This document shows positions 2,898 to 24,325 of a stretch of 33,656 nucleotides of DNA, one piece after another (position 1 is the stretch's first letter; each line of letters opens with the position of its first letter). The stretch comes from Candidatus Bipolaricaulia bacterium (GTDB lineage Bacteria; Bipolaricaulota; Bipolaricaulia; JBHIAT01), in the NCBI GenBank assembly GCA_046758705.1, contig JBHIAT010000018.1, positions 1 to 33,656 of the forward strand, read 5' to 3'. The translations under genes and the position numbers were made by a program. The notes under the pieces are model-generated. The model was not told the origin of the DNA, searched no databases, and saw only the letters and a list, made by a program, of their open reading frames with translations.

Positions 2898-4288
2898 AAA
2901 TCCGGAAATGGATCGCTGATCTTTAGAATATCAGATTCTTTCACGCCTGCTTCAAATAGCGACCATAACATCTCAAACCTTACTTTGATGTCTTTCCGGA
3001 TAATAGTACAAAGATCGGACGGATTTCTTTCAAACTTACCATTCCCCGCCACCGTGGCATAGCATACAGAACAAAGCCGAGTGATCGGACAATCAAAACA
3101 TTCAGGATAGATCTGTCTGCGATACAGGTCTATCAGGGTGACTATTTTTTCAATATCAACTCCCGTTTCGATGTCTCCGGTAGGAAACTGTTCGTTTATC
3201 CTTTCACAACAGTGAAAATCTCCCTGCGGATCAACGGCTATCTTGTCACCGGGTATACAGGTTCCAGTATATGGAAGGTAAAGATAATGCGGCCTAAATG
3301 GGATGTTCTGGGGCCTGTTCATGGCCATTTGATAGGCCATACCAAATAAAGCTTCGAGGACTATGAAAACCTTTTCACCGTTGACCAGCTGAGTAAAATA
3401 TCGTTCTCTACAGGCTTCTTGCAAGTGTACAAAGTTAACCTTTTGTTGAGTTGAATATCGATCATACCAGTCCGTAAAGCGTGGCGACACCAGTGAAACT
3501 CTTCCAATGGGAGGCAAAACATCTCCGTTGATTTCAAAAAAGTTGGTTACTGTTTTAAGATCGGTACCCACATCATAACACACTAAAACGCTACATTTTT
3601 CTCTGTAATAATTGGGATATTTTTCACGTATCTTCTGAAGATTGTCCCATACAATACTGAAAGTCCCGGTCCCACCAGGAAAGATCCTCAGTCTATCGTG
3701 CTCGGTTTGTGGACCGTTGAGGCTTATGGCTAGGGCGAAGTCATTGTCGTGAAAGAACTGGATCATCTTGTCAGTTAATATGGTACCATTTGTGGTCAGA
3801 TTGAAGAGGATTCTGCCAGGATAAAGTCCTTTTGCAAATTCAACTGCCTGACAGATCAAGTCAAAATTCCTCAGCGGTTCTCCACCATAGAAACCTATCG
3901 CTGGTATCCTGTACGGATTTCTTCGCTTGACGTGGACAAATCCTTCAAAATACCGCTTGATGGCTTCTCTTGCCACATCTGGAGTCATATATGAGGTTTG
4001 GTGGGTGCGCATGTTGCTATAATTCCCTGAATACACACAATAGAGACACCGAAGGTTACAGTCTTGTGTGGTGATCAGGGTTAGCTGCCTATAGCCCTCA
4101 CTCTTCAGATAGCCTTGGATATCTGATGTCTCGATATCCGGTAAGTCTTTTTCACAGGAAGAGGAAGTTTCTATGGTATGTTCTTCTTTCTTAACGCGCT
4201 CTGCTATTTGTACAGTACCGTCGCGGTCATTATAATAATAAACCGTTCCTTTCTTCGTGTGAAAATAGAACCCCCGGTCTTTAAACAT
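2894..4288 (-). CDS. Radical SAM/SPASM peptide maturase 1 (TrnC/CcpM-like)
   Basis: CNLRCLYC, FYGGEPL, TTNG, and SPASM motif CIPG...HCCER...CFDCPITRLCSVC...C. The ATG at 4288 follows GAGGTGAGG; the ORF track uses the GTG at 4300. Confidence 0.9.
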   Translation of the reverse strand: MFKDRGFYFHTKKGTVYYYNDRDGTVQIAERVKKEEHTIETSSSCEKDLPDIETSDIQGYLKSEGYRQLTLITTQDCNLRCLYCVYSGNYSNMRTHQTSYMTPDVAREAIKRYFEGFVHVKRRNPYRIPAIGFYGGEPLRNFDLICQAVEFAKGLYPGRILFNLTTNGTILTDKMIQFFHDNDFALAISLNGPQTEHDRLRIFPGGTGTFSIVWDNLQKIREKYPNYYREKCSVLVCYDVGTDLKTVTNFFEINGDVLPPIGRVSLVSPRFTDWYDRYSTQQKVNFVHLQEACRERYFTQLVNGEKVFIVLEALFGMAYQMAMNRPQNIPFRPHYLYLPYTGTCIPGDKIAVDPQGDFHCCERINEQFPTGDIETGVDIEKIVTLIDLYRRQIYPECFDCPITRLCSVCYATVAGNGKFERNPSDLCTIIRKDIKVRFEMLWSLFEAGVKESDILKISDPFPDF

Positions 4289-4368
4289 CTTTAGCCTCAC
4301 CTCGCGTTACACAAGATTCTCAGGAGGGGCCTGACGCCGCCTAAGTTCCGTTTCGTAATCTCACACTA

Positions 4369-4536
4369 TCAGCCAAAGAAGTAACCGACGAACACGATTG
4401 CGGCCACTGTGGCTGCCAGTCTATAGCTGCTTTTACATAGCATCCTGCACTGAACACCACAAACCCAGCCGCAAAACCACGGGACTCCTATACCCGCTTC
4501 CGTCTGTCCAGCGCCATTTGCGTTGACGACTTGCAT
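4369..4536 (-). CDS. 55-aa RiPP precursor peptide (sactipeptide-like), absent from the ORF track
   Basis: Hand translation: MQVVNANGAGQTEAGIGVPWFCGWVCGVQCRMLCKSSYRLAATVAAIVFVGYFFG*. Strong RBS (GGGAGGTG) upstream, tandem TGA TAG stops, CxxxCxxxCxxxC motif, directly upstream of two rSAM/SPASM genes. Confidence 0.9.
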   Translation of the reverse strand: MQVVNANGAGQTEAGIGVPWFCGWVCGVQCRMLCKSSYRLAATVAAIVFVGYFFG

Positions 4537-4844
4537 ATTTCACACCTCCCTTTTGTTTTGTTCGCCAGGCCCCTCTTACAGCTTCAGAATAATCCCGGTT
4601 TCAAAGGATGGCCATATCCTAAGTTAAGGAAAAAGCTTGATCTTTGATAAGGGAGGACCTTAACTATTGATCTTCTGAAGAGATGACAAGATTCACCGTC
4701 CTTGCCAGCCGCGTGACCTTGCGAATGGCGATGGGCTGCTTTAAGCTGTGACCGCCCTGATACAAGTGCTGTGGATCAGAACTTCCGACCCAGCGAGAGG
4801 TTACAAAGAAAAAGGTAAGGGAAGGCGGGAAGAAGGAAACCAAC

Positions 4845-4850
4845 TATAAT
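4845..4850 (+). promoter_or_regulatory. Possible -10 box (TATAAT) upstream of the IsrB element and Crp/Fnr gene
   Basis: Perfect TATAAT; no convincing -35 box. Confidence 0.4.
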
Positions 4851-4873
4851 TTCAAGATTTAGAAGGGATCTTT

Positions 4874-5115
4874 GTCAAGTACCCGCCTCCTGAAGGGAGC
4901 GGGCTTGAAGGAGTAGGAGATGCCCACTCCGAAAGTTCGAGCGGTAACGGAAAGACTAGCCTGGGGGAGCAACGCGCCGAGCGCGGGGCGATTGAACCCG
5001 ACTGAACGGTCTAGGCGTGGCAGTCTGAAGGATGTCACGGATGCCTCCCTAGTCTGTGACCTCTCCGACCGTCAGTGGCGAAGGGAAAGTACACACTCCG
5101 CAAGGAGGTTTACGC
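4874..5115 (+). ncRNA. Omega-RNA scaffold of IsrB element 1
   Basis: Lies directly 5' of isrB and contains several hairpins. Complementary segments GACTAG (near 4954) and CTAGTC (near 5049) and a downstream GGCGAAGGGA are typical of omega-RNA scaffolds. Boundaries approximate. Confidence 0.7.
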
Positions 5116-6132
5116 ATGTTCGTACCTGTCTTTGACGTAGACGGGAAGACGCCGCTGATGCCAACCAAGCCTTCACGGGCGAGGCGGTGGATCAAGAGCG
5201 GCAAGGCAACCCCGTTCTGGAAGAGGGGCGTCTTTTGTGTGCGCTTGAATCAAGAACCGAGCGAGCGCAACACGCAAGAGATTGCTGTCGGTGTTGATCC
5301 TGGCAGCCAGCGTGAGGGATACACGGTCAAGTCGGAGGCGCACACGTATCTCAACGTGCAGGCAGATGCGGTGACATGGGTGAAGGATCACGTCAAAACG
5401 CGCCGAGAGATGCGACGCGGGCGGCGGTTCCGCAAGACGCCGTGTCGCAAGCCCCGCTTCAATCGCATGCGAGGGAGTATTCCACCGAGTACGAAAGCAC
5501 GGTGGGGATGGAAGCTGCGGGTCTGTCGATGGTTGACGCAACTCTACCCGGTGACGCGGTTCGTGGTTGAGGACATCAAAGCTCGCACGAAGGGGCAGCG
5601 ACATTGGGATGCCTCATTCTCGCCGCTCGAAGTGGGGAAACAGTGGTTCTACTCCGAGCTGACGAAGCTGGCTCCGGTCGAGACGAAACAGGGCTGGGAG
5701 ACGAAGGAACTGCGAAACTCGCTGAGCCTCAAGAAGAACGGGAATAAGAGGGCTGAAACCTTCGATGCTCACTGCATAGATTCGTGGTGTTTGGCGAACT
5801 CTCATGTCGGCGGGCATACCGAGCCGGACAACACGGCGTTGCTTTGTGTAACCCCGCTGCGCTTCCACCACCGCCAACTCCATCGCCTTCAACCGGAGAA
5901 GAGCGGTAAGCGCAAGCCATACGGTGGTACACTCAGCCTGGGTCTCAAGCGCGGGAGCCTCGTCAGGCACATCCAGTGGGGACTGACCTACGTAGGCGGA
6001 ACACGACGAAATCGGATCAGTTTACACGATGCGACGACAGGGAAACGACTCACACAGTCTGCTAAGAGAGAAGACTGCACGGTACTCACAAGACTTAGAT
6101 GGAGATGGAGGTGTTATCAGCCTATCGGCTGA
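5116..6132 (+). CDS. isrB: IsrB RNA-guided nickase (PLMP domain plus split RuvC, no HNH), 338 aa
   Basis: RBS AAGGAGG; PLMP motif; RuvC-I GVDPG; Arg-rich bridge helix RREMRRGRRFRK; RuvC-II VVED; RuvC-III HCID. No HNH or zinc-finger insertion between RuvC-II and RuvC-III. Confidence 0.88.
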   Translation: MFVPVFDVDGKTPLMPTKPSRARRWIKSGKATPFWKRGVFCVRLNQEPSERNTQEIAVGVDPGSQREGYTVKSEAHTYLNVQADAVTWVKDHVKTRREMRRGRRFRKTPCRKPRFNRMRGSIPPSTKARWGWKLRVCRWLTQLYPVTRFVVEDIKARTKGQRHWDASFSPLEVGKQWFYSELTKLAPVETKQGWETKELRNSLSLKKNGNKRAETFDAHCIDSWCLANSHVGGHTEPDNTALLCVTPLRFHHRQLHRLQPEKSGKRKPYGGTLSLGLKRGSLVRHIQWGLTYVGGTRRNRISLHDATTGKRLTQSAKREDCTVLTRLRWRWRCYQPIG

Positions 6133-6184
6133 CAGGCGTTTCCTCCCGCCCCCTAAACGGGGCGGGTCTCCACGCCTGAATTTT

Positions 6185-6877
6185 ATGAGCCTCCCTAAAT
6201 GTGAGAAATGTAAGAGCTCTTGTGTGTTCTCGAGGGATAGGGGTAAGTTACTCTCCCAGCTCAGGATGGTGAATACGCTCCATTATGAGGGGGGAGAGGT
6301 GATCTTTGAGCAGGGTGGGCCCGTAAGCGGTTGCTACATCATCTGCACAGGGAAGACCAAGGAGAGCTGGCGCACCTCGATGGGTAAGAAGCACACGATT
6401 AAAATCTTAGGCCAAGGAGGGTTGTTAGCTTTTGCAGAGGTCTTATCCAACCAGGTCTGGCATGATACCTGCACTATAGCGCTAGAAGATACGAGCGCAG
6501 TCTTCATCGGCAAGGAAGAGCTGCAAAATCTATTGAGGTGGCAGGAGCTTTCAACGGAGCTTTCCTTAAGATTAGCCAGGGAGACGGTCTTCTTAAAGAG
6601 GGAGCTGGGGTTAAAATCTTACTATGTGGAGGAGCGAGTTGCCAGCCTGCTGCTAACTATAGGCAAGGACTATGGTACGAAAGATGAAGACGGCTCGTTC
6701 ATCGATTTCAAATTCACCAATGAAGAGCTAGCGGAACTTGTGGGCTGCACTCCCGTGACCGTCTCGCGAACCTTAAGCAAGCTGATCAAAAGGAATTTGA
6801 TTTCACGCAATGGTCAAAGGATTAAGATCTTGAATGAACAGGATCTAAAGAGGTTGTCTGCGGATGTCATTCTATAG
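6185..6877 (+). CDS. Crp/Fnr family transcriptional regulator
   Basis: cNMP-binding-like domain (GEVIFEQG...YIICTG) and C-terminal HTH (TNEELAELVGCTPVTVSRTLSKL). Start set at ATG 6185 because the upstream in-frame sequence belongs to the IsrB element. Confidence 0.9.
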   Translation: MSLPKCEKCKSSCVFSRDRGKLLSQLRMVNTLHYEGGEVIFEQGGPVSGCYIICTGKTKESWRTSMGKKHTIKILGQGGLLAFAEVLSNQVWHDTCTIALEDTSAVFIGKEELQNLLRWQELSTELSLRLARETVFLKRELGLKSYYVEERVASLLLTIGKDYGTKDEDGSFIDFKFTNEELAELVGCTPVTVSRTLSKLIKRNLISRNGQRIKILNEQDLKRLSADVIL

Positions 6878-9656
6878 AAAAACGTGGCAGAGGACACCCG
6901 GATTGATCCGGATGGTGAATGCCGCCTCACTTGGCAAACGTTCCCTAACCCTGTATGTTTTGATTTTGCTGATCCTGATGATCGGAATTGGAGGAACAAG
7001 CTTCGCAGCCGCTTATGACCCCAACCTACGGTGGAGAACCTTGGAGACCCCACACTTTCGCATCGTCTTCCATCAGGGGACCGAAGGCCTGGCGCACGAG
7101 GCGGCGTTGGCCGCTGAACAGGCTTATGCGTTCTGGATCGAGGAGCTGAACTATCGGCCAAACGGGAAGGCCAATCTGGTCATCGTCGATGCGGCCGATT
7201 TCGCAAACGGTTTTGCCAGCCTCTTTCCCAACAAAGATATCACCGTCTATACCTCACAAGCCCGGTTCGCCGACTGGGCAAACTCCCGATCCGAATCGTG
7301 GATGGGTCTGGTGGTGTTTCACGAGTACGGCCATGTCGTCGATCTCGACAAGGTGAGCAAAGTCCCAGCCGTATTCCGATCCATCTTTGGAAGGATCATC
7401 CTACTGAATATCAGACCCACGTTGTTCATCGAGGGGATTCCGACCTACGGGGAGTTCCTGAGATCCGGTCACGCCCGCGCCAATGACCCCAGAGATGAGA
7501 TGTACCTTCGCGAGATGACTCTCGAAGATGACTTTCCGTCCTTCGACCGCGCCAGTTCCTACTACAGCCGCGATGAATGGATGCCACCCAGCATGATCTC
7601 CCACGACTACGGCCCCCTGTTCATGCGGTACCTCGAGGAAAGATACGGACGGGGAACGATTGCGGCGTTGAGCGAACGCTACACTCAGAATCTCTTAAAT
7701 TTGAATTTCTTCTTCCCGAACTTCGGCCATGCCCTGAAAAAGACCGTAGGAATATCTCCGAATGCGCTTTACACCGACTTCAAGGCCTGGGCCAAGGGGT
7801 GGTTCGCCGCACAGGTGGAGCGGATCGAAACCGAAGGGATCACCGAGAGCCAAAGAATCACCCGGCTCAGTTACTGGAGCGATCAGCCGGCTTGGTCGCC
7901 GGACGGGGAATGGGTTGTCTATCGCCACAGTGACCCGCGCCGCTTGACCGGATTGAGAATCCTCAGACCTGACGGAGGGGACGACCGATCACTGATCTCG
8001 GGAAGCATCGAGTTTCCAACCTGGTCTCCAGATGGAAGTCGACTGGTATACGCAAAGCTTGATATCTACAGGCATTCCTACTTTTACCAGGATCTCTACC
8101 TCTACGATGTGAAGACCGGAAAAGAAGAACGGCTCACCCAGGGCGCCCGCGCTTACTATCCCGCGCTCATGCCGGACGGAAACAGGGTTCTATTCGCCCG
8201 TCACCGGCTCGGGGATCGGAGCCCCGATCTTGTGATCCTGAATCTGGCGATCCGAGAGGTCACCCCCCTGAAGGTCTTCCCGAACGATACGTTCGTCCAT
8301 TCGTTCGAGATCTCGCCCAGTGGTGAAGAGATTGCGCTCTCCATCTGGAAGCGAGGCGGCTATCAGGACATCTACACGATGCCGATCCACGGAGGTGAGC
8401 TGACGCCGATCACCCAGGACCGAGCGACCGATCTCGACCCCACCTGGTCGCCTGATGGGGAATACATCGTGTTCAACTCGGATCGAGATGGGATCAACAA
8501 TCTGTATGCGTATCGGGTCGCCGATGGTGCCTTGCTAAAGGTGACTAACGTGCGATCGGGCGCGTTTGATCCCGATGTCTCTCCCGATGGCGATCAGATC
8601 GCTTTTGTGGGCTACAGCATTGCCGGCTACGATGTGCACACGATGACGTTCGATCCACAGCGCTGGACCCAGGTTTCCTATACGCATGAAACCCTCCCCC
8701 AGTGGCCGGGTTACCCCGAGACCGATTATCCCATTCATCGCTACAACCCGCTTCCGTCCCTGGTGCCTAAGTGGTGGCTCCCGATCATTGAAGAAAATCA
8801 GGCAGGGTTTTCCACCTTCGGCCTGGACTCGTTGTTCCAGCATTCGTATACGTTGGAGGGTGGATACAACTGGGTCGAGAACCGTCCGTTCTACGCGCTG
8901 AGCTACATCAACAATCGGTTCCATCCCACCCTATCTTTAAGTTTGAGCGGGGATAGCTCTGGGAATCAGCAGCGGTTGGAGGCAGCCTTCCCGGTGGTGA
9001 CCCGACTTCATTCCAGCCAACGGATCTCGGTCGGCTACCGCCGGGACGAGGATCTGAACACTGGGACGATCGACGACACGCTGTTCTCGACGTGGTGGCT
9101 TACCGGCGTTTCGGGACGCGATCTGTTTCAGGATGAGCGCCGGATTACACTGACCGGAGAGCTGAGCATGGAGCGGGGAACGTCCATGCCCCAGCGATCG
9201 CTGATTTTCGATTGGCGCGAAGTGTTCCGGCTGCCCGTGGTTCGGGAGCACCGGCTGGCGGTGAAGCTCTCCGGAGGGTGGAGCGATACGAAAGACCGCT
9301 TTTCGCTCGGGGGGACCGCCGGAACGCTCTTGTTGCGCGGGTTTGCGACCGGGACACTGAGCGGTGCCCAGTTCATCTCAGGAAGCGTCGAGTATCGGTT
9401 TCCGATCGTCTCGATCGAACGAGGGATAGAACTTTCGCCGATCTTCTTCGATGATCTTCGCGGGAGTTTATTTATAGATGGGGGGACGGCTGGAGCGGAT
9501 CTGAGGGCTGTACCGCTCAACGTGGGAGTGGGTGCGGAGCTTCACCTTTCGACCGTTGAGTTCTATGCGGTTCCTCTGAGCTTCCGTCTCGGGGTGGCCT
9601 GGGGGTTGGGTGAGGAGAGCTCGCAGGTCTATGGTGGCCTAGGAACAGCGTTTTAG
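6864..9656 (+). CDS. Exported gluzincin-like peptidase / PD40 (TolB-like) propeller / Omp85-type beta-barrel protein
   Basis: Signal-peptide-like N-terminus; HEYGH...EG zinc motif; repeated P-x-WSPDG; C-terminal LRGF, VEYRFP and terminal Phe as in BamA/TamA barrels. The start may be at 6912. Confidence 0.75.
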   Translation: MSFYRKTWQRTPGLIRMVNAASLGKRSLTLYVLILLILMIGIGGTSFAAAYDPNLRWRTLETPHFRIVFHQGTEGLAHEAALAAEQAYAFWIEELNYRPNGKANLVIVDAADFANGFASLFPNKDITVYTSQARFADWANSRSESWMGLVVFHEYGHVVDLDKVSKVPAVFRSIFGRIILLNIRPTLFIEGIPTYGEFLRSGHARANDPRDEMYLREMTLEDDFPSFDRASSYYSRDEWMPPSMISHDYGPLFMRYLEERYGRGTIAALSERYTQNLLNLNFFFPNFGHALKKTVGISPNALYTDFKAWAKGWFAAQVERIETEGITESQRITRLSYWSDQPAWSPDGEWVVYRHSDPRRLTGLRILRPDGGDDRSLISGSIEFPTWSPDGSRLVYAKLDIYRHSYFYQDLYLYDVKTGKEERLTQGARAYYPALMPDGNRVLFARHRLGDRSPDLVILNLAIREVTPLKVFPNDTFVHSFEISPSGEEIALSIWKRGGYQDIYTMPIHGGELTPITQDRATDLDPTWSPDGEYIVFNSDRDGINNLYAYRVADGALLKVTNVRSGAFDPDVSPDGDQIAFVGYSIAGYDVHTMTFDPQRWTQVSYTHETLPQWPGYPETDYPIHRYNPLPSLVPKWWLPIIEENQAGFSTFGLDSLFQHSYTLEGGYNWVENRPFYALSYINNRFHPTLSLSLSGDSSGNQQRLEAAFPVVTRLHSSQRISVGYRRDEDLNTGTIDDTLFSTWWLTGVSGRDLFQDERRITLTGELSMERGTSMPQRSLIFDWREVFRLPVVREHRLAVKLSGGWSDTKDRFSLGGTAGTLLLRGFATGTLSGAQFISGSVEYRFPIVSIERGIELSPIFFDDLRGSLFIDGGTAGADLRAVPLNVGVGAELHLSTVEFYAVPLSFRLGVAWGLGEESSQVYGGLGTAF

Positions 9657-9682
9657 AGCTAGAGCAGATCGTTCCAGCACCC

Positions 9683-10792
9683 CTAACTTGTGAACTCGGA
9701 TTTCTGGCTGATCTCCTCGCATAGCTTCACCAGTTCCAGCACCCGTTCGTCCGGTGTGCCCGCCTCGATGTCGGCAAAGACCATATCGCAAGGCCCATAT
9801 TCGCGAGCGATTTGCTCCAGGTCGCTTCGGATTTCAGCGGAACGCTTATCAGCAACATCCATGGGTGTGTACATGATCGCTCTGCGAGCGTGCGGGAACA
9901 CCTGTTTTGCTCTGGGGAGGTCCGACTCCATCCCCATATCGACATAGCCTAAGTGGGGGATGGTGGCGTAATGCTCGACATAGTGATCGGCATTCCAGGC
10001 ACAGTTGTGGACTCCAATCAGACCGAAGGTCTCGGCTATGCATCGATCGAAGGGAAGGAGTAGATCACGGTAGAGTTCAGGGGAGACCAGATTAACAAGA
10101 CAATTGCTGACGGTGAAGTGCTGAATGTGGACTCCGGTTTGGTGCTGGACCTCATACAGTCGTCGGGCGCCCGCGATCATCGTCATGGCCACGCACTCAA
10201 ACAGATGCCGAGTCCGTGTCGGCTCCTGCAACATGTCCACAAGCAAATGCTCACCACGCAAACGGTAAGCGTTATTGAGCACCCCTTGCCAATTGATGAA
10301 ACCTTCCGTCCGGCCGGTCTCACGGGCGATCCACTCTACCTGTTCTAAGAAAGCGGTGAAAAAAGGATTCGAATCCAGGTCGGGAGGCTCCAGTCGGTTC
10401 AGTTGCTCGTCGCTCAAGAATTGGTGTTTGCTCCACGGCCAGTTCTCTGGATGGTACTGAATCGGAACCCCATAGATCGCGGCCACGAAGCTCGTACCGA
10501 AAGTTCCTGTGATGAGATCGGCCGGTTCATCCGGATTTTCGACCCCGCCGATAGGAATACTGCCGAAGCGCCGTTTCAGCTCTCTCCCCATGCGAATCAT
10601 GGCGCTTAGACGATAGGCCGGATCTTTGTGCCATGGCTCATCGAAGTCGATGTCCAGAGCGTCGCGATACCATTTCGGTGTAAACCCGATCTCGGGCCGC
10701 ATAAACGGCTCATCACCCCGTGCCGGTCTGCGGGTGGCAGGCGCCGAGGGCGCAATATAGCTAATGAGCTGTCTTGGGGTTTTCTCTGTCAT
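9683..10792 (-). CDS. Uroporphyrinogen decarboxylase / MtaA-CmuA-like TIM-barrel protein of unknown function
   Basis: Pattern GVLNNAYRLRG...DMLQEP...SPELYRDLLLP...HNC...GTPDE is typical of the URO-D superfamily. ATG at 10792 follows AGAGGGA; the longer ORF-track start overlaps the aldolase gene. Confidence 0.6.
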   Translation of the reverse strand: MTEKTPRQLISYIAPSAPATRRPARGDEPFMRPEIGFTPKWYRDALDIDFDEPWHKDPAYRLSAMIRMGRELKRRFGSIPIGGVENPDEPADLITGTFGTSFVAAIYGVPIQYHPENWPWSKHQFLSDEQLNRLEPPDLDSNPFFTAFLEQVEWIARETGRTEGFINWQGVLNNAYRLRGEHLLVDMLQEPTRTRHLFECVAMTMIAGARRLYEVQHQTGVHIQHFTVSNCLVNLVSPELYRDLLLPFDRCIAETFGLIGVHNCAWNADHYVEHYATIPHLGYVDMGMESDLPRAKQVFPHARRAIMYTPMDVADKRSAEIRSDLEQIAREYGPCDMVFADIEAGTPDERVLELVKLCEEISQKSEFTS

Positions 10793-11462
10793 GGAATTTC
10801 CCTCTGGTTTCGTATCTGATTTGGTTCCAGTCCTGCTCAAATTGCTCCAGAGAAGCGCGAGTAACATCGTGTCGAAACAGTTCTTCAAAAACGGAATAAA
10901 ATACAACGACCGCATGGGCGCCGGATAACAGCGCGCCCGTCGCGTCTTCCGGTGTACGCACACTCGCTGCGACAATTTTGGTGTCTATTCCGTGTCGCAT
11001 ATACAACTCAGCCACGTTTCTGATCAAGCCTGGAGCGTCTTGCCCAGCCGCATTAATGCGTCCAAAATACGGAGCGATATAGTGGGCCCCGGCAACGGCG
11101 GCTAGATAAGCCTGGTTGACCGAGCAGACAGCGGTAACCAGGGTCGCTATACCGCCTCTGGCTAACTGGCTTGCGGCCGATATTCCATCGGGCGTCGCAG
11201 GCAGCTTGAAACAAATCTGTGTTGAGATGGATCGCAACGCCTCGGCTTCGACCAAAAACTCATCTTTCTTAGGACCCCAAAGTTGCACAAATAGCGGTAG
11301 ATCCACCTTTCGGCATGCTTTTTCTACAACCTCTTCCAGTGTGTAGCGTCCTCCATCGGTCCACTGGACGATCAACCTGGGATTGGTCGCTACCGCTTCG
11401 ATCAGGCCGGTTGCCGCTGCGACTTCCACTTCTTCAATACTCCCGGAGATCCACACGCCCAT
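10761..11462 (-). CDS. Transaldolase-family, fructose-6-phosphate aldolase-like enzyme
   Basis: ATNP, Schiff-base lysine in FKLP, YIAPYFGR, and AASVR. Confidence 0.85.
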   Translation of the reverse strand: MGVWISGSIEEVEVAAATGLIEAVATNPRLIVQWTDGGRYTLEEVVEKACRKVDLPLFVQLWGPKKDEFLVEAEALRSISTQICFKLPATPDGISAASQLARGGIATLVTAVCSVNQAYLAAVAGAHYIAPYFGRINAAGQDAPGLIRNVAELYMRHGIDTKIVAASVRTPEDATGALLSGAHAVVVFYSVFEELFRHDVTRASLEQFEQDWNQIRYETRGKFHDRENPKTAH

Positions 11463-11478
11463 CTTCGGTCACCTCATT

Positions 11479-12369
11479 TCATGCCAATAATCCTTTTTCT
11501 CTGAGCAGATGCTCTGAGGCGTGCTTCGATTCGGCTGGCATGGGTTCTAACGGGGCGCGCAACCAACGCGCATAATTTTTACCTTTCAGCTCCAGACAGG
11601 CCTTGATCCCTGCGATCGGAGAGGATCCTAACATGATCTTCTGTATAGTTAAGATTAAACCCTGGGTTTCCCGGGCACGTCTCAAATCCTCATTTCGGAT
11701 TGCAGCCACTAAATCGACGATGAGTTCTGGAAAAGCGTTGGCTAAGCCGGAAACGACTCCATCCCCGCCAATCATCATGGCTGGGAGAATCAATCCGTCA
11801 TCGGCTTGAAAGCGTGAAAAATTCTTTGATTCGGTCGCTTGTAAGTAAAGATAGAACCTTTTCAAGTCGCCCGAGCTGTCCTTTAGGCCAACGATGTTTT
11901 CATGACGGGCCAGACGAGCCACTGTTTCTGGATCGAGGGTATTTCCAGTCACAGCGGGATAGTGATAGATGACCACGGGTAAAGGTGAGGCATCCGCGAC
12001 TTGAGTGAGGTGATTGAGGAGTGCGGGCTGGCTTAATTTAAAGAAATAGGGAGTGATGACCACATTGATATCAGCGCCCGCTTCGGCAGTCAATTGGCAC
12101 CAGCGTATGGTTTCTTGAGTACTAGGGGCACCCACCCCGGAAAAAACGGTTACTTTCCCTCGAACCGTTTGAACGGTTTTATGAATCAGAGTTTCTCTTT
12201 CATTTTGGGTTAAAAGCGGCGTCTCTCCGGTGGTGCCCATCACGAAGACGCCGTCGATCACGTACTCCAGTAAAAACCCAATGTGCTCGCCGAACGCGGT
12301 CACATCCACTGCACCATCCGGTTGATATGGGGTGATTAAGGGTACGATCACACCACCGTGAAGCCGCAT
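11479..12369 (-). CDS. DHDPS/N-acetylneuraminate lyase family class I aldolase
   Basis: GTTGE, TPYF, YHYPAVTG, GLKDSSGD. ATG at 12369 follows GAGGGGGG. Confidence 0.88.
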   Translation of the reverse strand: MRLHGGVIVPLITPYQPDGAVDVTAFGEHIGFLLEYVIDGVFVMGTTGETPLLTQNERETLIHKTVQTVRGKVTVFSGVGAPSTQETIRWCQLTAEAGADINVVITPYFFKLSQPALLNHLTQVADASPLPVVIYHYPAVTGNTLDPETVARLARHENIVGLKDSSGDLKRFYLYLQATESKNFSRFQADDGLILPAMMIGGDGVVSGLANAFPELIVDLVAAIRNEDLRRARETQGLILTIQKIMLGSSPIAGIKACLELKGKNYARWLRAPLEPMPAESKHASEHLLREKGLLA

Positions 12370-12389
12370 ACAACCCCCCTCGGTGTTCG

Positions 12390-13664
12390 TCACTTCAGCA
12401 ACCGTGGCAAGAATAACACAAAACCTTCCCAATAGGTGATCGTAAACAACACAATAATCAACGTGACGAGATAGGGAAACGCCTCTTTGACGAGCGTAGC
12501 GACCGGCACCTTTGTCAGACCGTTCATCACAAACAACAGCGCCCCAAATGGGGGGGTGATTAAACCGATCATCAGGTTCAAGATGACCACGACCCCGAAA
12601 TGGACCAGATCAATGCCTGCGGCTTGAACGACAGGCACAACGATGGGCAGGAAGATCACGATGATGGCACCGACGTCAAGGACCATGCCGAGGATTAAGA
12701 ACAGGATGTTTAAGATCAACAGGAGCACCCACTTGTTGTCTGTGACGGACAAAAGCCACGCTGCTATCCGAGCCGGAACTTGTTCTCGAGTGACCACCCA
12801 GCTGAGCAACAATGAGGTGATCAGGATGAACGTGATAAACCCGGTGCGGACGACCACCGTTTTGAGGATCGCTAGCAAATCTTTCAAGGTGAATTCCCTG
12901 TAGATGAGGAACGCGATCAGCAGTGCGTAGAAGGCGGTGACGGCTGCGGCTTCAGTGGGGGTAAACACGCCGCTGAAGATTCCTCCCAACAGGAGCACCG
13001 GGGTCAACAGAGCGAAAAAGGCGCGTCCAAATGCGATTCGGATTTCACGGAGGTTGGCGCGCTGGTCGCGTTGGAAGCCACGGCGTCGCGCGATGAAGTA
13101 GGTGGTCACCATCATGGCGCCACCCATGAGCATGCCCGGCAGCAACCCGGCGAGAAATAGCTGTCCGACTGAAGCCCCGGCAATGATGGCGTAGAGAATC
13201 ATCGGGATGCTGGGAGGGATAATGGGCCCAACGGTGGAGGAGGATGCTGAAACGGCTGCGGCAAAGCTTTTGTCATAACCCTGAGACGTCATGGCCTCGA
13301 TTTCCATAAGGCCGGGGCCGGACGCATCCGCAATCGCTGACCCTGACATGCCGGCGAAGAAAATGCTGTCCACGATGTTGACCTGAGCTAAACTGCCCGG
13401 GAAATGTCCGACCAAGGTTTGGGCAAAAGAGAAAATACGTTTGGTAATGCCTGTCGAGTTCATGATCTCTGCGGCGAATATGAAGAAAGGTACAGCCAAC
13501 AGCACGAAACTGTTTGTCCCGAGGACGAGTTTCTGAACAATCAAGCTCGGGTTTAATCTTTCCAGATAAAGATAGAGCGCAGAGGATGAGATGAAAGCGA
13601 ATACGATGGGGAAGCCTAAGATGAACAGTCCGACGACGGAGACCAAAAATATCGTGAATATCAT
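12390..13664 (-). CDS. dctM: TRAP transporter large permease
   Basis: LAVPFFI, SGSAIAD, IIPPSIP, TPTEA and ITPPFG motifs. Confidence 0.93.
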   Translation of the reverse strand: MIFTIFLVSVVGLFILGFPIVFAFISSSALYLYLERLNPSLIVQKLVLGTNSFVLLAVPFFIFAAEIMNSTGITKRIFSFAQTLVGHFPGSLAQVNIVDSIFFAGMSGSAIADASGPGLMEIEAMTSQGYDKSFAAAVSASSSTVGPIIPPSIPMILYAIIAGASVGQLFLAGLLPGMLMGGAMMVTTYFIARRRGFQRDQRANLREIRIAFGRAFFALLTPVLLLGGIFSGVFTPTEAAAVTAFYALLIAFLIYREFTLKDLLAILKTVVVRTGFITFILITSLLLSWVVTREQVPARIAAWLLSVTDNKWVLLLILNILFLILGMVLDVGAIIVIFLPIVVPVVQAAGIDLVHFGVVVILNLMIGLITPPFGALLFVMNGLTKVPVATLVKEAFPYLVTLIIVLFTITYWEGFVLFLPRLLK

Positions 13665-14173
13665 CGACGTTCTCTCCTCAGGGATTGCAGTCGCTCAACA
13701 TCCGAGAGGAAGTGGGACATGGCATGAATCGCGATAAATCCCATAGATACAGGCAATGAGGCAAATAACCAACCCCAGGAGATCCCAGTTCCTCCTGGAG
13801 ATTTGATAACCTTAATGAAGTTAACATAGTTGAAAGATACTTGGAATGTGTAAACAGCGATGCTGAGCACCAGAACATCGCTTAACAAGGCGATCCACGA
13901 TCGGGCTCGGCCAGGGAGGTAGTTTAGGATCAAATCCATGACCACGTGCTCACGTCGGTTAAACGCATAAGCGGCTCCGATCATGACCAACCAGGCAAAC
14001 GATTGAATCGCGGCGTCTTCTGACCAGGTTGAGGGACGGTTGATCACATAACGCATAAAAACCTGATAGAGAGCGGCCGTTGTCATCGTAATGAGGAAGA
14101 AACCCCCTAAAGTCGCCTCGATCATCGCCAGGATCTTATCAATAGTTTTAAAAACATCTCGAACTTTTCGCAT
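13661..14173 (-). CDS. dctQ: TRAP transporter small permease
   Basis: Four transmembrane segments; QVFMRY...WSED and HV-x-D motifs; stop overlaps the dctM start. Confidence 0.9.
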   Translation of the reverse strand: MRKVRDVFKTIDKILAMIEATLGGFFLITMTTAALYQVFMRYVINRPSTWSEDAAIQSFAWLVMIGAAYAFNRREHVVMDLILNYLPGRARSWIALLSDVLVLSIAVYTFQVSFNYVNFIKVIKSPGGTGISWGWLFASLPVSMGFIAIHAMSHFLSDVERLQSLRRERR

Positions 14174-14185
14174 AGGATTTGTTCA

Positions 14186-14231
14186 ATAAAAATAGGGCAG
14201 GTTAGCAATCTCTACCACAACCTGCCCTATT
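14186..14231 (-). terminator. Hairpin / partial terminator between dctP and dctQ
   Basis: Perfect 13-bp inverted repeat AATAGGGCAGGTT (14191-14203) / AACCTGCCCTATT (14219-14231), followed by a U-rich tract on the minus strand. Confidence 0.7.
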
Positions 14232-14291
14232 GTCACCTACCAACTTTGTCAGCGCGGAGTGCCCTCCTTTTCCGACTCCGACATGCCCGAT

Positions 14292-15290
14292 CTACTGGAA
14301 GCGCTGAATGTCTGCGTACAGATCACCGAAGATAGCCGAGAAGATCTTCTGGCCGCTGTCTCGGAACGGGGCCTTGTCCGGAGTAATGATGTGGAGGTGG
14401 TCCTCCTCGTTGAACTTTTCGGCCAACGAGGCTTCTTGATCCACAATGATCTGGTTTTGTTCTTCTCCGCCGACTTCGAGCGCTTCCAGGATGATATTCC
14501 GATCTCGTCTGGAAAGGCCATCCCAGAAAGCCTTGTTAAAGAACGGCATGATGTTGTCCACGATATGGCTGGTCAGGATCAAGAACTTGACCACTTCATA
14601 GAATTTAGCGGCATCAATCGTGGGCAAGGGGTTTTCTTGAGCATCAATGACACCACTCTGTAATGCCCCATAGACCTCGCCAAACCCTAAAGGTGTGGGG
14701 TTGGACCCTAACGCCCTAGCTGCATTAATAAAGGCCGGGGCATTTGGTGCGCGTAATTTGACCGCGCCAAAATCATCGGGTGAAAATGGCGGGCATCTTC
14801 CCGTGTCACGCACCGTGACCTGGCGAGTCCCCAAATACCACGTATCCGCCACGACAAGGTTGGCAGCCCGTTCTCCTTGCTCGATTAAGCTTCGTCCAAG
14901 ATTCGATCTGGCAAAGCGCACCATATGGTCAACGTTTCGGAACGCATAAGCCGCGTTAAAAACGCCCAGCGGCTCGTGAAATTGTGCGATCCATGCGGCT
15001 GCCCCCATCCACGCCTCTTGAGTTCCATCGATGGTTTGGAGTAACTGTTGTTGCTGGTTTCCCAGTTGACCTGCGGGGAAAACTTGCATCTCTATGCGTC
15101 CACCGCTTAGTTGTTGCATGAACCTGCCTGCGGTTGCAAGACCGACATTATAAGGTTGGGTCGGAGGACCATCATGGCCCATCCGAATCTCAACGGTACC
15201 CTGAGCTTGAGATAAGAAGCCGGCTGTGCTGAGCACGGCTGCGGTTGTGCCAACCGTCTTGATAAAATCTCTTCGGGTCAGAGATTTCAT
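14292..15290 (-). CDS. dctP: TRAP substrate-binding protein with Tat signal
   Basis: MKSLTRRDFIK twin-arginine motif; FPAGQLG, KLRAP, EVYGALQSGVIDAQENP. RBS AGGAGG precedes ATG 15290. Confidence 0.92.
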   Translation of the reverse strand: MKSLTRRDFIKTVGTTAAVLSTAGFLSQAQGTVEIRMGHDGPPTQPYNVGLATAGRFMQQLSGGRIEMQVFPAGQLGNQQQQLLQTIDGTQEAWMGAAAWIAQFHEPLGVFNAAYAFRNVDHMVRFARSNLGRSLIEQGERAANLVVADTWYLGTRQVTVRDTGRCPPFSPDDFGAVKLRAPNAPAFINAARALGSNPTPLGFGEVYGALQSGVIDAQENPLPTIDAAKFYEVVKFLILTSHIVDNIMPFFNKAFWDGLSRRDRNIILEALEVGGEEQNQIIVDQEASLAEKFNEEDHLHIITPDKAPFRDSGQKIFSAIFGDLYADIQRFQ

Positions 15291-15418
15291 GACGTAAAAC
15301 CTCCTATTTTTTAAGACTTTGGGGGACAAGGCTCCTCCTTGCTTGAGTTTTCAGCAGGCGTGAACCACCTCCTCACTTTAAGTCTTGAAATGTTTGAATA
15401 AGCATTTCTACCACGTTG

Positions 15419-15448
15419 TTTATAACATAAATCGAGCAACACTGTCAA
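15419..15448 (-). promoter_or_regulatory. Sigma70-type promoter for the TRAP operon
   Basis: TTGACA, 18 nt, TATAAA with an extended TGn on the minus strand. Confidence 0.6.
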
Positions 15449-15503
15449 CAGCAAGATGTGCGGTCTACATCCGCTTTCTAGAGCTTGAAGGGTGACCCTC
15501 GGG

Positions 15504-18428: not shown

Positions 18429-18456
18429 CCTGATCACTCTCCGATAATGCCGATGT

Positions 18457-18486
18457 ATTCTACAATTCTGTGACTCTCCCTGTCAA
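18457..18486 (-). promoter_or_regulatory. Sigma70-type promoter for rtcB
   Basis: TTGACA, 18 nt, TAGAAT on the minus strand, about 30 nt before the start codon. Confidence 0.65.
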
Positions 18487-18549
18487 GAAGCCCAGCATCG
18501 TCTCTCCCCGGTTTCCCCGGTTGACACCAGGACTGTGCCGTCGGCTGCT

Positions 18550-18578
18550 TTGAAGCCCTCGGGCCGGTGGTGTATAAT
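18550..18578 (+). promoter_or_regulatory. Sigma70-type promoter for the lipA-pdh operon
   Basis: TTGAAG, 17 nt, TATAAT. Confidence 0.6.
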
Positions 18579-18608
18579 AAACCCAGATTGCTGCCAAAAG
18601 CAGATTTG

Positions 18609-19556
18609 ATGAAACGCCAGAGCGTGAGCGTAAAAACCAACAGAAAACTGACTGAAAGAAAGCCGGAGTGGCTTAAGGTCAGACCCCCATCTGGCCAGAA
18701 CTTCCATCACATCAAGCGGGCGTTGTGGACGTACAACCTGCACACCGTCTGTGAGGAGGCCCACTGCCCGAACATTGGTGAGTGCTGGAGCGGCGGGACC
18801 GCCACCCTGATGCTGATGGGGGACACCTGCACCCGGGGCTGCCGGTTCTGCGCGGTCAAGACCGGAAATCCTCGCAGCCATCTCGATCCTCTGGAGCCGA
18901 TGAAGGTGGCCAAAACGGTCCGTGACTGGGGGCTCCGCTACGTGGTGCTGACCTCGGTCGACCGGGATGACCTGCCGGACGGTGGGTCCGGCCATTTCGC
19001 GACCACGGTTCGCATGATCAAGCGCGAGCATCCCGATGTGCTGATCGAGGTGTTGATCCCCGACTTCCAGGGTGATGTGGACGCGCTGGGCAAGATCGTG
19101 GCAGCGGAGCCGCAGGTCATCGCGCACAACGTCGAGACGGTCGAGCGGCTCACCCTACAGGTGCGCGATGTGCGGGCTAAATACCGCCAGTCGCTGGCCG
19201 TCCTGGAGCATATGAAACGGCTCAACCCGGAGATCTATACCAAATCCTCGTTGATGGTCGGCTTGGGTGAGACGGAGGCGGAGGTGCGGCAAACGATGCA
19301 TGACCTGCGAGAGGTCGATGTCGATATCCTCACCGTGGGCCAGTACCTCAGGCCGTCCCAACGGCACATCGAAGTGACCGAATACGTGCCACCGGAGCAG
19401 TTCGATCGTTACCGGCGGATGGGGGAGGAGTTGGGATTCCTGTATGTGGCCTCCGGGCCGTTCGTCAGGAGCTCTTATCGGGCGGGTGAGTTCTTCATCG
19501 AGCGCATTATAAGAGGGGAGGACCGGAATGGCAAAGCGCACCCCAGTCAAGGATGA
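18609..19556 (+). CDS. lipA: Lipoyl synthase
   Basis: KPEWLK, CEEAHCPNIGEC, CTRGCRFC, TSVDRDDL, HNVETV, RSSYRA. Start uncertain (18609 or 18624); the ORF-track start at 18567 lies inside the predicted promoter. Confidence 0.95.
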   Translation: MKRQSVSVKTNRKLTERKPEWLKVRPPSGQNFHHIKRALWTYNLHTVCEEAHCPNIGECWSGGTATLMLMGDTCTRGCRFCAVKTGNPRSHLDPLEPMKVAKTVRDWGLRYVVLTSVDRDDLPDGGSGHFATTVRMIKREHPDVLIEVLIPDFQGDVDALGKIVAAEPQVIAHNVETVERLTLQVRDVRAKYRQSLAVLEHMKRLNPEIYTKSSLMVGLGETEAEVRQTMHDLREVDVDILTVGQYLRPSQRHIEVTEYVPPEQFDRYRRMGEELGFLYVASGPFVRSSYRAGEFFIERIIRGEDRNGKAHPSQG

Positions 19557-20697: not shown

Positions 20698-20715
20698 GAA
20701 TAAACAGGAGAAGAT

Positions 20716-21693: not shown

Positions 21694-21731
21694 TGGTTGA
21701 TGGTTGATTTTATAAACAGCTGAGGGGGATA

Positions 21732-22976: not shown

Positions 22977-22977
22977 G

Positions 22978-23250
22978 GTCAACGACCCGCCCCCTCAAGG
23001 GAGCGGGGTTGCAATGGCGATAGCAACGTAAGCATTGACTAGGAGGAGTTTGCGATACCAATGCAATGGCAATTGCAAACTAAACGCACTGTAGGCTATA
23101 AGGACGACGGAGTACACGACCTAGCTCCGCCCGCTCCGGCAGAATCGCTTAATGCCACGTCTGTCCACCGTCAAGGCAGTCGACAGACTAAGCCTGCTTT
23201 GCCCCTCGAAGGTCACTCAACAGGTCCACGGGAGCCTGGCCGTATACCGG
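22978..23250 (+). ncRNA. Probable omega-RNA scaffold of IsrB element 2
   Basis: Same 5' hairpin as element 1; GACTAGG near 23037 complementary to CCTAG near 23120; late CTCGAAGG motif. The 3' boundary is approximate. Confidence 0.55.
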
Positions 23251-24296
23251 CACTCATTCCCGTGCTCCACCAGGATGGTACCCCACTTACCCCTTGCAAA
23301 CCGGCCAAAGCCCGCAAGCTGCTGCGGGGTGGTGTCGCTGAAAAGCGCTGGAATAAGCTTGGTCATTTCTACATCCAGATGCGGGTCGAGACTGGCAAAC
23401 AGATCCCGGAGATGTGGTTGGCGGACGACCCCGGCTCGCAGTTTGACGGGATCGCAGTCGCTTCTCATCAGCGGGTTCAAACGACCGCCATGCTCGAATT
23501 GCCCAGCGGGATCGCCAAGAAGATGACCAACCGGAGACAACTCAGACGGGCCCGGCGGTATCGCAAATGTCGCAGGCGACCGAAGCGATTTGACAATCGC
23601 CACCGACCGGAGGGTTGGACAGCTCCCTCGCAGAAAGCCAAAGTGGACTTCCGGCTGAAGGTGATCGGTGAGCTCTATAAGCTCTATCCGATTGCTGGTG
23701 CTGTGGTCGAGGATGTGCGATTTAACCACTATCGCAACCGTTGGGGCAAGCACTTCTCCACGGTCGAGATCGGGAAAGCTTACTTCTATGCCGAGCTAAA
23801 GAAGCTCGGTCAGCTGAAGCTATACGCTGGCTGGGAGACGCAGGAAGAACGCGAGAGGCAGGGCTTGAAGAAAAGCAAGTCCAAGCGTAAGAGGACACCG
23901 GAGAGCCATGTGGTGGATGCGGTAGCGATGTTGTCCCGATGGCTAGGGACGGCTGACCTGCGCGTGCCCCAGTTCTGGGTGTTCAAGCGACCGAAATTGC
24001 GCAGGCGCAGCCTCCATGTTCAGAACCCGGCCAAGGGAGGGGTGCGACGGATGCATGGTGGGACAGTAGCCTTGGGCATCCGTAAAAACACGGTTTGTCT
24101 TTGGAGAGGGCAGCTGTACCGAACCGGGGGGTCAACGGGAGGCCGGCTGAGTTTGCACGATATGACGCTGGAGGCCAAGCGGGTGGTGCGGCACGCCAAA
24201 GTGGAGGAGTTAACATTGCTATTCAAGCAATCGATATTTGGAATGGAGGTGAAATACAAGCCTAACGGCTTGCAGCCAATACCTCTGTCCTCCTGA
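23061..24296 (+). CDS. isrB: IsrB RNA-guided nickase (no HNH), with possible N-terminal extension
   Basis: PLTPC (PLMP-like), DDPG, RRQLRRARRYRK, VVED, HVVD. Start uncertain; the conserved core begins near 23256. Confidence 0.85.
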   Translation: MQWQLQTKRTVGYKDDGVHDLAPPAPAESLNATSVHRQGSRQTKPALPLEGHSTGPREPGRIPALIPVLHQDGTPLTPCKPAKARKLLRGGVAEKRWNKLGHFYIQMRVETGKQIPEMWLADDPGSQFDGIAVASHQRVQTTAMLELPSGIAKKMTNRRQLRRARRYRKCRRRPKRFDNRHRPEGWTAPSQKAKVDFRLKVIGELYKLYPIAGAVVEDVRFNHYRNRWGKHFSTVEIGKAYFYAELKKLGQLKLYAGWETQEERERQGLKKSKSKRKRTPESHVVDAVAMLSRWLGTADLRVPQFWVFKRPKLRRRSLHVQNPAKGGVRRMHGGTVALGIRKNTVCLWRGQLYRTGGSTGGRLSLHDMTLEAKRVVRHAKVEELTLLFKQSIFGMEVKYKPNGLQPIPLSS

Positions 24297-24325
24297 GGGA
24301 GGACGGTCCTCTTGGCTGAACTTCT

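Follow-up and report, generated by a model that had tools for sequence, protein, structure and literature searches.

Why does a transposable element sit exactly between the ribosome-binding site (RBS) and the start codon of a gene and leave that gene intact? The question is raised by contig JBHIAT010000018.1 of a Candidatus Bipolaricaulia bacterium (assembly GCA_046758705.1), a stretch of 33,656 nucleotides referred to here as the window, in which a 1,311-bp element of IS200/IS605 type carrying an omegaRNA and an IsrB gene (element 1) lies directly ahead of the gene for a Crp/Fnr-family regulator. We found that the position of element 1 between an RBS-like run and an ATG is confirmed, that the start-codon position goes beyond chance across the family, and that the placement of these elements between a Shine-Dalgarno (SD) sequence and an ATG is real and widespread. 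Regarding its cause, we consider it moderately probable, as one joint reading, that element 1 is a non-autonomous transposon of the IS200/IS605 superfamily, of the ISC1/IsrB type and served in trans by a Y1 transposase, and that the start-codon pattern reflects which insertions are retained more than where they are aimed. The coordinates of the features are collected in Table 1.

The left junction of element 1 reads ...AGAAGGGATCTTT(4873)/GTCAAGTACCCGCC... and the right one ...GCCTGAATTTT(6184)/ATGAGC, a slash marking the point of insertion here and below, which places the element between AGAAGGGATCTTT and the ATG of the Crp/Fnr gene. The junctions show neither a direct repeat nor a target duplication, the flanks TCTTT/ and /ATGAG being unrelated. 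There are no terminal inverted repeats and the repeat search reported no inverted repeat of at least 40 nt for the element; instead, it has subterminal hairpins at 4882-4903 and at 6145-6166, the latter being CCCGCCCC-CTAAAC-GGGGCGGG, followed by the 18-nt tail TCTCCACGCCTGAATTTT. Conservation among copies begins and ends exactly at 4874 and 6184, the limits given in an earlier, sequence-only reading of the window. That reading had placed the element between a host RBS and its start codon without target duplication, which the sequence and the ends of the other copies confirm; it also held that the 5' flank encoding the guide contains the RBS and that the element leaves coding sequence intact, and both statements were borne out. 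The run in question, AGAAGGGA (4861-4868), lies in the 5' flank 5 nt ahead of the junction and is a weak RBS, as it fails a strict test for GGAG, GAGG or AGGA. Element 1 occupies an intergenic region of 573 bp between divergent genes; as the radical-SAM-like gene upstream is encoded on the opposite strand, a guide transcript of element 1 would come only from the promoter side of the Crp/Fnr gene. A simple scan of the + strand from 4250 to 6300 found no sigma-70-like site, which constitutes weak evidence.

To place this site among others, element ends in the genome were located with blastn and nhmmer profiles. Thirteen 5' ends were obtained, 12 of them starting with GTCAA and a hairpin, while that of an element with tnpA and tnpB on contig C27 starts with GTGAAC; the 5' flanks of the 13 copies are unrelated to one another. 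On the other side, 18 3' ends were detected by nhmmer (E up to 0.14) and one was added by eye on contig C241, giving 19 ends that share the hairpin and a tail of ~18-19 nt, beyond which the flanks diverge. Many ends fall at contig ends, and both ends are on one contig for six elements only. The junction codon opens an open reading frame (ORF) of 111-473 aa at 13 of the 19 ends, while the other six open 5-58 codons; among the 16 ATG junctions, 12 open ORFs of at least 111 aa. In eight of the 13 cases, full-length family profiles align from their position 2-5 (22 of 214 for CRP) to residue 2-11 of the product (28 for Crp). These genes encode the V-type ATPase subunit F, RNase HI, glutamate formimidoyltransferase (FtcD), dihydrolipoyl dehydrogenase (lpd), a sugar-phosphate nucleotidyltransferase, threonine synthase (ThrC), the Crp/Fnr protein and an MntA-like nucleotidyltransferase with a lead of 12-17 residues. 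ThrC is the case with a GTG junction, and an ATG occurs three codons further on. Also, an E1-alpha-like ORF of 361 aa lies behind the C241 end. Since the profile alignments reach the N-termini, these eight junctions coincide with true gene starts or miss them by a few codons at most.

The genome contains ~61,000-62,000 ATGR sites on both strands, of which 23.8% open an ORF of at least 100 aa and 14.4% have GGAG, GAGG or AGGA at -17..-4. With a crude greedy ORF picker as gene caller (3,354 genes, 85% coding), called starts account for 1,485 ATGR sites (2.4%) and intergenic sites for 9,557, so that starts represent 13.4% of non-coding plus start sites. The finding of 12 of 16 ATG ends at long ORFs gives indicative P values of 2e-5 against 23.8%, 4e-8 against 13.4% and 6e-17 against 2.4%; with the eight proven starts only, P is 5e-4 against 13.4%. 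In agreement, an SD-like tetramer at -17..-4 is present in 7 of 13 5' flanks, compared with 13% of random positions (P=5e-4). The tally of start codons at 3' flanks that the sequence-only reading had proposed thus shows enrichment.

The same layout is found in other genomes. A scan with the IsrB alignment, one genome per species, returned 80 loci, mostly from Candidatus Poribacteria, cyanobacteria and archaea, to which the profiles of this genome's element ends failed to transfer. Eight loci whose match stopped short of the IsrB C-terminus were dropped and two had less than 460 nt downstream; at 47 of the remaining 70, the interval from -20 to +140 nt around the IsrB stop contains an ATG or GTG that opens an ORF of at least 100 aa, compared with 32% of 2,800 random 160-nt windows from the same loci. 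Among 37 loci (L046-L086), nearly all from Poribacteria, a junction RTG was called in 32 (26 ATG and 6 GTG) by a motif written after viewing the data, which makes the calls partly circular. ORFs of 124-816 aa begin at 21 of these 32 junctions (L049 and L050 being one and the same site), and many of the products have an N-terminus resembling a signal peptide. In many of the 5' flanks, an SD followed by a spacer of 5-9 nt immediately precedes GTCA. An automatic junction caller based on hairpins was dropped, as it picked wrong hairpins. In annotated cyanobacterial plasmids (3 of 12 matching records examined), the next coding sequence starts at the junction ATG in two, and the third is annotated with a GTG start 7 codons downstream of an in-frame junction ATG.

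Empty sites in relatives, another check put forward by the sequence-only reading, were found for related elements and have the predicted junction. The proteins behind four Poribacteria insertions were searched in five Poribacteria genomes, and the orthologous loci without the element have an ATG at the aligned position (spacer/ATG) in 14 of 14 cases. Several of them also correspond further upstream, where their DNA runs collinear with the 5' flank at the filled site: for L137 the flank is nearly identical, ...TTTAGAGAGGGAACAG/ATGAAAAG, and three L074 orthologues read ...GGAAGGAGAATGGAATTAA/ATGAAGCC. The spacers differ by a few bases, as they belong to other species, so the junction is seen as an architecture and not as a single allele. 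These sites support the register X/GTCA.../ATGR and show the ATG to be the host's own start codon.

We then considered what the flanking motif may contribute. Sixteen of the 19 3' ends abut ATG (13 ATGG, 3 ATGA), one abuts GTGA (C100), one ATCG (C10) and one AGGG (C266). At the ends with ATG or GTG, GTGA included, the fourth flank base is thus G in 13 cases and A in 4. The C10 end (G000:C10:26465, - strand) lies inside a gene-like frame of 58 codons, possibly the C-terminal portion of a Uma2-type protein, and the C266 end (G000:C266:85) is an aberrant perfect palindrome abutting AGGGAGG. According to the study of DtIsrB, the IsrB of Desulfovirgula thermocuniculi, this protein prefers the target-adjacent motif (TAM) NTGA (TTGA at 60 C), Arg323 reading G3 and Gln326 reading A4; a G in the fourth position is tolerated as well by the Q326R variant, and four other IsrBs use NTG and one NTGG (Hirano, 2022; PMC9581776). 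In our profile alignment, K-R-I-G-Q of the DtIsrB structure 8DMB (chain residues 472-476) pairs with K310-R311-L-T-Q314 of IsrB 1, the equation of the aligned residues with R323 and Q326 resting on the i, i+3 spacing and on an inferred tag offset of 150. IsrB 2, from the second element of the window, has K-R-V-V-R at this site, that is, Arg at the Gln-326 position, and its flank is ATGG. Within the genome, element 1 and the C11 and C241 copies (Gln type where the protein is known) are flanked by ATGA and the element-2 family by ATGG. Among the 32 Poribacteria-type loci, all 23 scored ones with Gln or Thr at the Q326 position have A as the fourth flank base, and 7 loci could not be scored for this pairing; of the Arg loci, L084 has ATGG, and L063 was scored by the script as ATGA and has ATGG if its junction is set three bases later.

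For element 1, ATGA consists of the host start codon and the first base of codon 2. The proposal of the sequence-only reading that ATGA is the TAM is supported by the flank conservation, by Arg311 and Gln314, and by the published TAMs and targets NTGA, NTG, NTGG and N/ATGA; it fits element 1, but genome-wide the commoner motif is ATGG (13 ends) and not ATGA (3 ends). A TAM containing ATG is already known for the group, of which element 1 is a regular example, and earlier publications cover the NTGA and NTGG TAMs, the N/ATGA target and the requirement that the guide be transcribed from outside. The further step of that reading, from an ATGA TAM to an element that targets translation-initiation regions, does not follow: start codons make up ~2.4% of ATGR sites, and therefore a 4-nt motif cannot aim at them.

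The genome contains the machinery for movement in trans, with six matches to the Y1 transposase family PF01797, all above the cut-off (best E 5e-40). The tnpA copies on C27 and C43 adjoin the same 3'-end type as the IsrB elements. That on C27 belongs to the tnpA/tnpB element, which itself lies between AGGAGGAAGTCATC (AGGAGG-N8) and the ATG of a 332-aa M29-peptidase-like ORF, and that on C43 is a remnant beside an end abutting the ATG of a 383-aa ORF. Going by established work on relatives, the probable cycle is as follows. The Y1 transposase would place the element, as a single strand, beside YCAT, which is ATGR when read on the IsrB strand; transcription initiated in the host and passing through the 5' flank would yield an omegaRNA whose guide is the Crp/Fnr leader including the RBS; after excision, the IsrB-omegaRNA complex would nick the rejoined site, recognised by the guide match followed by ATGA, and recombination with a sister copy would then restore the element. 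In this scheme ATG plus a purine would serve as the motif and at the same time be the most frequent context of a start codon, the element would require sense transcription from outside for its guide, and in compact operons the base before a start codon would be nearly the sole motif site that is transcribed and where insertion breaks no frame. As start-codon sites would be both transcribed and frame-safe, insertions there would be the ones retained. With respect to the host gene, no SD-like tetramer was found at -17..-4 relative to the junction codon in any of 18 element ends of the genome; therefore the host SD is displaced by ~1.3 kb and not replaced. Intact single-copy genes sit behind elements in the genome, and translation of the host gene may be lost, coupled to IsrB or independent of an SD.

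Several points weigh against this joint reading, and in particular against retention as the full explanation. The start-codon excess persists against the non-coding null (13.4% expected, 12 of 16 observed), so retention alone may not suffice. Insertions within leaders are rarer, though insertion between SD and ATG should harm translation more, and ~4 of the 32 Poribacteria-type ends, judged by eye, are followed by an SD and a later ATG. The C27 element also lies between SD and ATG, though the published model makes its guide RNA internally, a case that argues against outside transcription as the only driver (n=1-2). Copies within the genome and genomes within Poribacteria are not independent, and the P values above are indicative only, the copies being not fully independent and the gene calls rough. 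Furthermore, neither an empty allele of element 1 nor an excision joint nor a transcript was seen. Relatedness of the 30 nearest genomes goes no further than the class, their best Crp/Fnr identity being 36%, and no empty allele was found in them; a scan of metagenome contigs with the Crp/Fnr protein gave 308 pattern matches, none of them confirmed. Contigs of runs X1-X4 compared with 4500-24400 at 85% likeness contain no joint 4873->6185 or 22977->24326; those of X1-X3, possibly the source samples, bridge element 1 without difference and X4 gave short pieces only. A joint 23046->24245 occurs in three runs, and we take it to come from short copies without an ORF.

If start codons were not merely kept but sought, the transposase itself, or a DNA state at translation-initiation regions such as weakly structured single strands, would favour them beyond the 4-5 nt motif. 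The excess over non-coding ATGR sites and the like placement of the C27 tnpA/tnpB element speak for such targeting. Nevertheless, we regard it as unlikely, since the 5' flanks share only host-like SD runs at variable distance and the 3' flanks only RTGR and a weak fifth base, no long ORF begins at 6 of the 19 ends here or at 11 of the 32 Poribacteria-type ends, and the C10 end falls inside a gene-like frame at ATCG.

Another explanation may be that the element evolved to take over translation of the downstream gene by re-initiation after the IsrB stop, its position being selected by this tie to the host gene. The TGA stop of IsrB is the TGA of the junction ATGA in C241 (L005 1150-1165), L042, L088 and L090, an overlap typical of translational coupling; in L112, L043 and L045 the stop lies 1-7 nt before the junction, and at most Poribacteria-type ends 25-30 nt before it. 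In two plasmid relatives, GGAG(G) precedes the junction ATG by 8-13 nt, and the intact single-copy genes behind the elements of this genome also fit. In element 1, however, the stop and the ATG are separated by 52 nt with a stable hairpin and, as at all 18 ends, no SD, and the overlaps are few and could arise if an ORF happens to run to the element end. A coupled or regulatory layout as the cause of the position is thus rather improbable.

A different boundary register was considered as well. As in the ISC elements of Ktedonobacter (target GT/GR, termini CA...AT), the element could span 4876-6186 and have entered a site with a GTG start, so that the empty allele would read ...TCTTTGTGAGC in place of the ...TCTTTATGAGC predicted under the 4874-6184 register. 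Both registers are compatible with the GT at the 5' end of every copy and with the AT that mostly precedes GR at the 3' end, and GT/GG and GT/GR are reported for some families (Kapitonov, 2016; PMC4810608). The empty orthologous sites of Poribacteria argue against it, as all 14 have ATG and none has GTG or a GT before the start. Moreover, near-identical ends have either A (26) or G (6) ahead of TG while the 5' GT is fixed, the HEARO RNA consensus begins with GUCA, which is paired within the RNA, and N/ATGA was demonstrated with empty sites for the Microcystis ISC1 element with the same GTCA start (PMC4810608). We consider the shifted register very improbable. That element 1 came to lie before an ATG by chance, next to a fortuitous run, is hardly credible: its RBS-like run is indeed weak and fails the strict SD test, but the placement recurs at 13 of 19 ends here and in other phyla.

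The identity of the element itself is well supported. IsrB 1 matches the Pfam family RRXRR (PF14239) over residues 3-156 with an E-value of 2e-34, the sole family reported, and at E<=0.01 no HNH family was found in it by Pfam. As a single protein it matches the DtIsrB structure 8DMB with E 1e-34; a profile of 23 relatives (A2) aligns to that chain over positions 2-333, nearly the whole length, with E 2e-103, and IsrB 2 matches with E 6e-78. C-terminal fragments of both IsrBs had no matches in the PDB, and the alignment in this part was supplied by the profile search. In alignment A2, D61 is invariant and E152, H219 and D222 are nearly invariant columns, and all four, which we take to be the RuvC catalytic residues, are present in IsrB 1. 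From its sequence the protein belongs to IsrB, the OMEGA nickase of the ISC1 group, and nicking activity is predicted. Upstream, the Rfam family HEARO (RF02033) aligns full-length, positions 1-211, to 4874-5092, from the first base of the element (GUCAA). The score of 16.7 bits (E 0.28) is far below the gathering score of 83, so by the Rfam rule it is not a member, and no Rfam match at gathering score occurs anywhere in the window. Ten aligned upstream regions, all starting with GTCA, give 30 predicted pairs, 19 of them with compensatory changes, as expected for a conserved structured RNA directly upstream of IsrB that begins at the transposon end. The SD of IsrB 1, AAGGAGG, is at 5102-5108, inside this scaffold region. 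A 2009 study of HEARO is said to have noted insertion before ATGA or GTGA.

The element is an ordinary member of a well-studied family. It resembles DtIsrB in family, in an upstream omegaRNA with the IsrB SD near its 3' end, in an NTGA-type TAM and, by alignment, in Arg311 and Gln314 at the places of Arg323 and Gln326 (PMC9581776). Unlike DtIsrB, the elements described here are known from sequence alone, and IsrB 2 has naturally the Arg that was engineered in Q326R. The accessible part of that paper makes no mention of the position of natural copies relative to genes. Similarly, ISC1-1_MA of Microcystis has a GTCA 5' terminus, subterminal hairpins, no target duplication and an N/ATGA target, and ISC1 and ISC2 elements are moved in trans by Y1 transposases that also serve IS605 elements, in which the genes have the opposite orientation (Kapitonov, 2016; PMC4810608). 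In contrast to ISC1-1_MA, the target here is mostly ATGG. The term 'start codon' does not appear in that paper, which thus leaves placement at gene starts undiscussed. For ISGst5 of Geobacillus stearothermophilus, the omegaRNA is bounded by the right end with the guide outside the element, and the TAM, given as TTCAT on the 5' side of the left end and equivalent to ATGAA when read along the iscB strand, is a motif common to TnpA and GstIscB; iscB elements need transcription from outside and their orientation is biased to that of the upstream gene (Meers, 2023, preprint; 10.1101/2023.03.14.532601). Its protein is an IscB with HNH and not an IsrB, and the accessible part of the preprint reports only an orientation bias and not a position between SD and ATG. 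We found no statement of start-codon placement in the literature searched; the supplements of Kapitonov (2016), outside this search, may bear on the point.

In this sense, the useful part is the site pattern and not the element. If a large share of IsrB elements lies between SD and ATG, natural guides would derive from translation-initiation regions and natural TAMs would be start codons, and such an origin at gene starts matters for how the evolution of TAMs and guides is read. Automatic annotation can misplace starts behind such elements, as in one of the three annotated records, where the start is set 7 codons inside. Each insertion lets one observe, in a natural setting, how a gene is translated with no SD close by or by coupling to a transposon gene, and the pattern offers a sharp test of insertion preference versus retention for Y1 transposons. 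A bolder proposal, which we hold to be doubtful, is that IsrB and allied IS605 elements with an RTGR motif are specialised in parking at start codons: the host promoter and leader would make the guide, and the downstream gene would depend on translation through the element, by re-initiation and, in some lineages, by an ATGA overlap or an SD borne on the element. If so, non-precise loss of the element would damage the host gene, a form of addiction, and binding of IsrB to the omegaRNA could also tune that gene.

Table 1. Features of element 1, its target site and related elements. Positions refer to the window unless a contig is named. The 20-nt guide length is an assumption taken from DtIsrB.
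Feature	Position	Strand	Description and basis
Element 1	4874-6184	+	1,311-bp IS200/IS605-type element: omegaRNA and IsrB gene
5' flank, would encode the omegaRNA guide	4854..4873	+	Sequence; guide-from-5'-flank rule from the literature
OmegaRNA scaffold (right end in TnpA terms)	4874..5115	+	GTCAAG start, imperfect subterminal hairpin 4882-4903
IsrB 1 gene, 338 aa	5116..6132	+	RRXRR/PLMP N-terminus, RuvC, without HNH; ATG 5116, stop 6130-6132
Element 1 3' end (left end in TnpA terms)	6133..6184	+	Hairpin and 18-nt tail
ATGA, inferred IsrB TAM; TCAT on the other strand, inferred Y1 target motif	6185..6188	+	Flank conservation, TI-domain residues, literature
Crp/Fnr-family regulator, 230 aa, intact	6185..6877	+	Pfam cNMP_binding and HTH_Crp_2
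Second IsrB element, different subfamily (35% protein identity)	22978..24325	+	Flank ATGG
Third element, element-1 type, 5' end cut by contig end	1..55	-	Flank ends ...TCCTATCATGAAG
IS605-type element, tnpA and tnpB on opposite strand	G000:C27:13181-14817 (L021 357-1993)		Shares 3'-end type

IsrB 1 has eight matches in its own genome, including the 35%-identical protein of the second window element and two IscB-like genes. Element 2 is located inside an operon with the E1, E2 and lpd genes in a row, 1 nt past the stop codon of E2 (22974-22976) and directly ahead of the ATG of lpd (24326), and residues 11-470 of the lpd product align to TIGR01350 positions 3-461. IsrB 2 has no ATG near its conserved N-terminus (…IPALIPVLHQDG…); its frame is open 417-421 codons back through the omegaRNA region in two full copies, and in a third copy of this type, cut by a contig end, it is open back to the same upstream point. 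The IsrB of C241 is shortened by an internal deletion. Copies of ~386 nt without an ORF are present at G000:C151:1977-2362 and G000:C9:15906-16291, with an omegaRNA-like 5' part and the usual 3' end followed by ATGG, and IsrB supplied in trans could serve them. IscB-type genes with an HNH-like stretch occur at G000:C1 ~49.7-51.2 kb (L007) and on G000:C14 (L008), one of them intact and the other with the HNH region partly lost; the stretch on C1 was read by eye. With these genes present, IsrB, IscB and TnpB elements therefore coexist in the genome.

Finally, the gene behind element 1 encodes a protein with both domains expected of a Crp/Fnr regulator (PF00027, E 7e-14; PF13545, E 7e-19) and an N-terminal Cys-rich stretch with C6, C9 and C13. 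Positions 22-211 of the NCBIfam CRP model align to its residues 28-216, and homologues in other genomes align from its residue 4-6. An in-frame ATG at 6029, inside element 1, lengthens the frame of this gene by 52 codons (6029-6877, + strand), perhaps by chance. Also perhaps by chance, some Poribacteria-type elements have an in-frame ATG 0-3 nt past the IsrB stop, 9-10 codons ahead of the host ATG.

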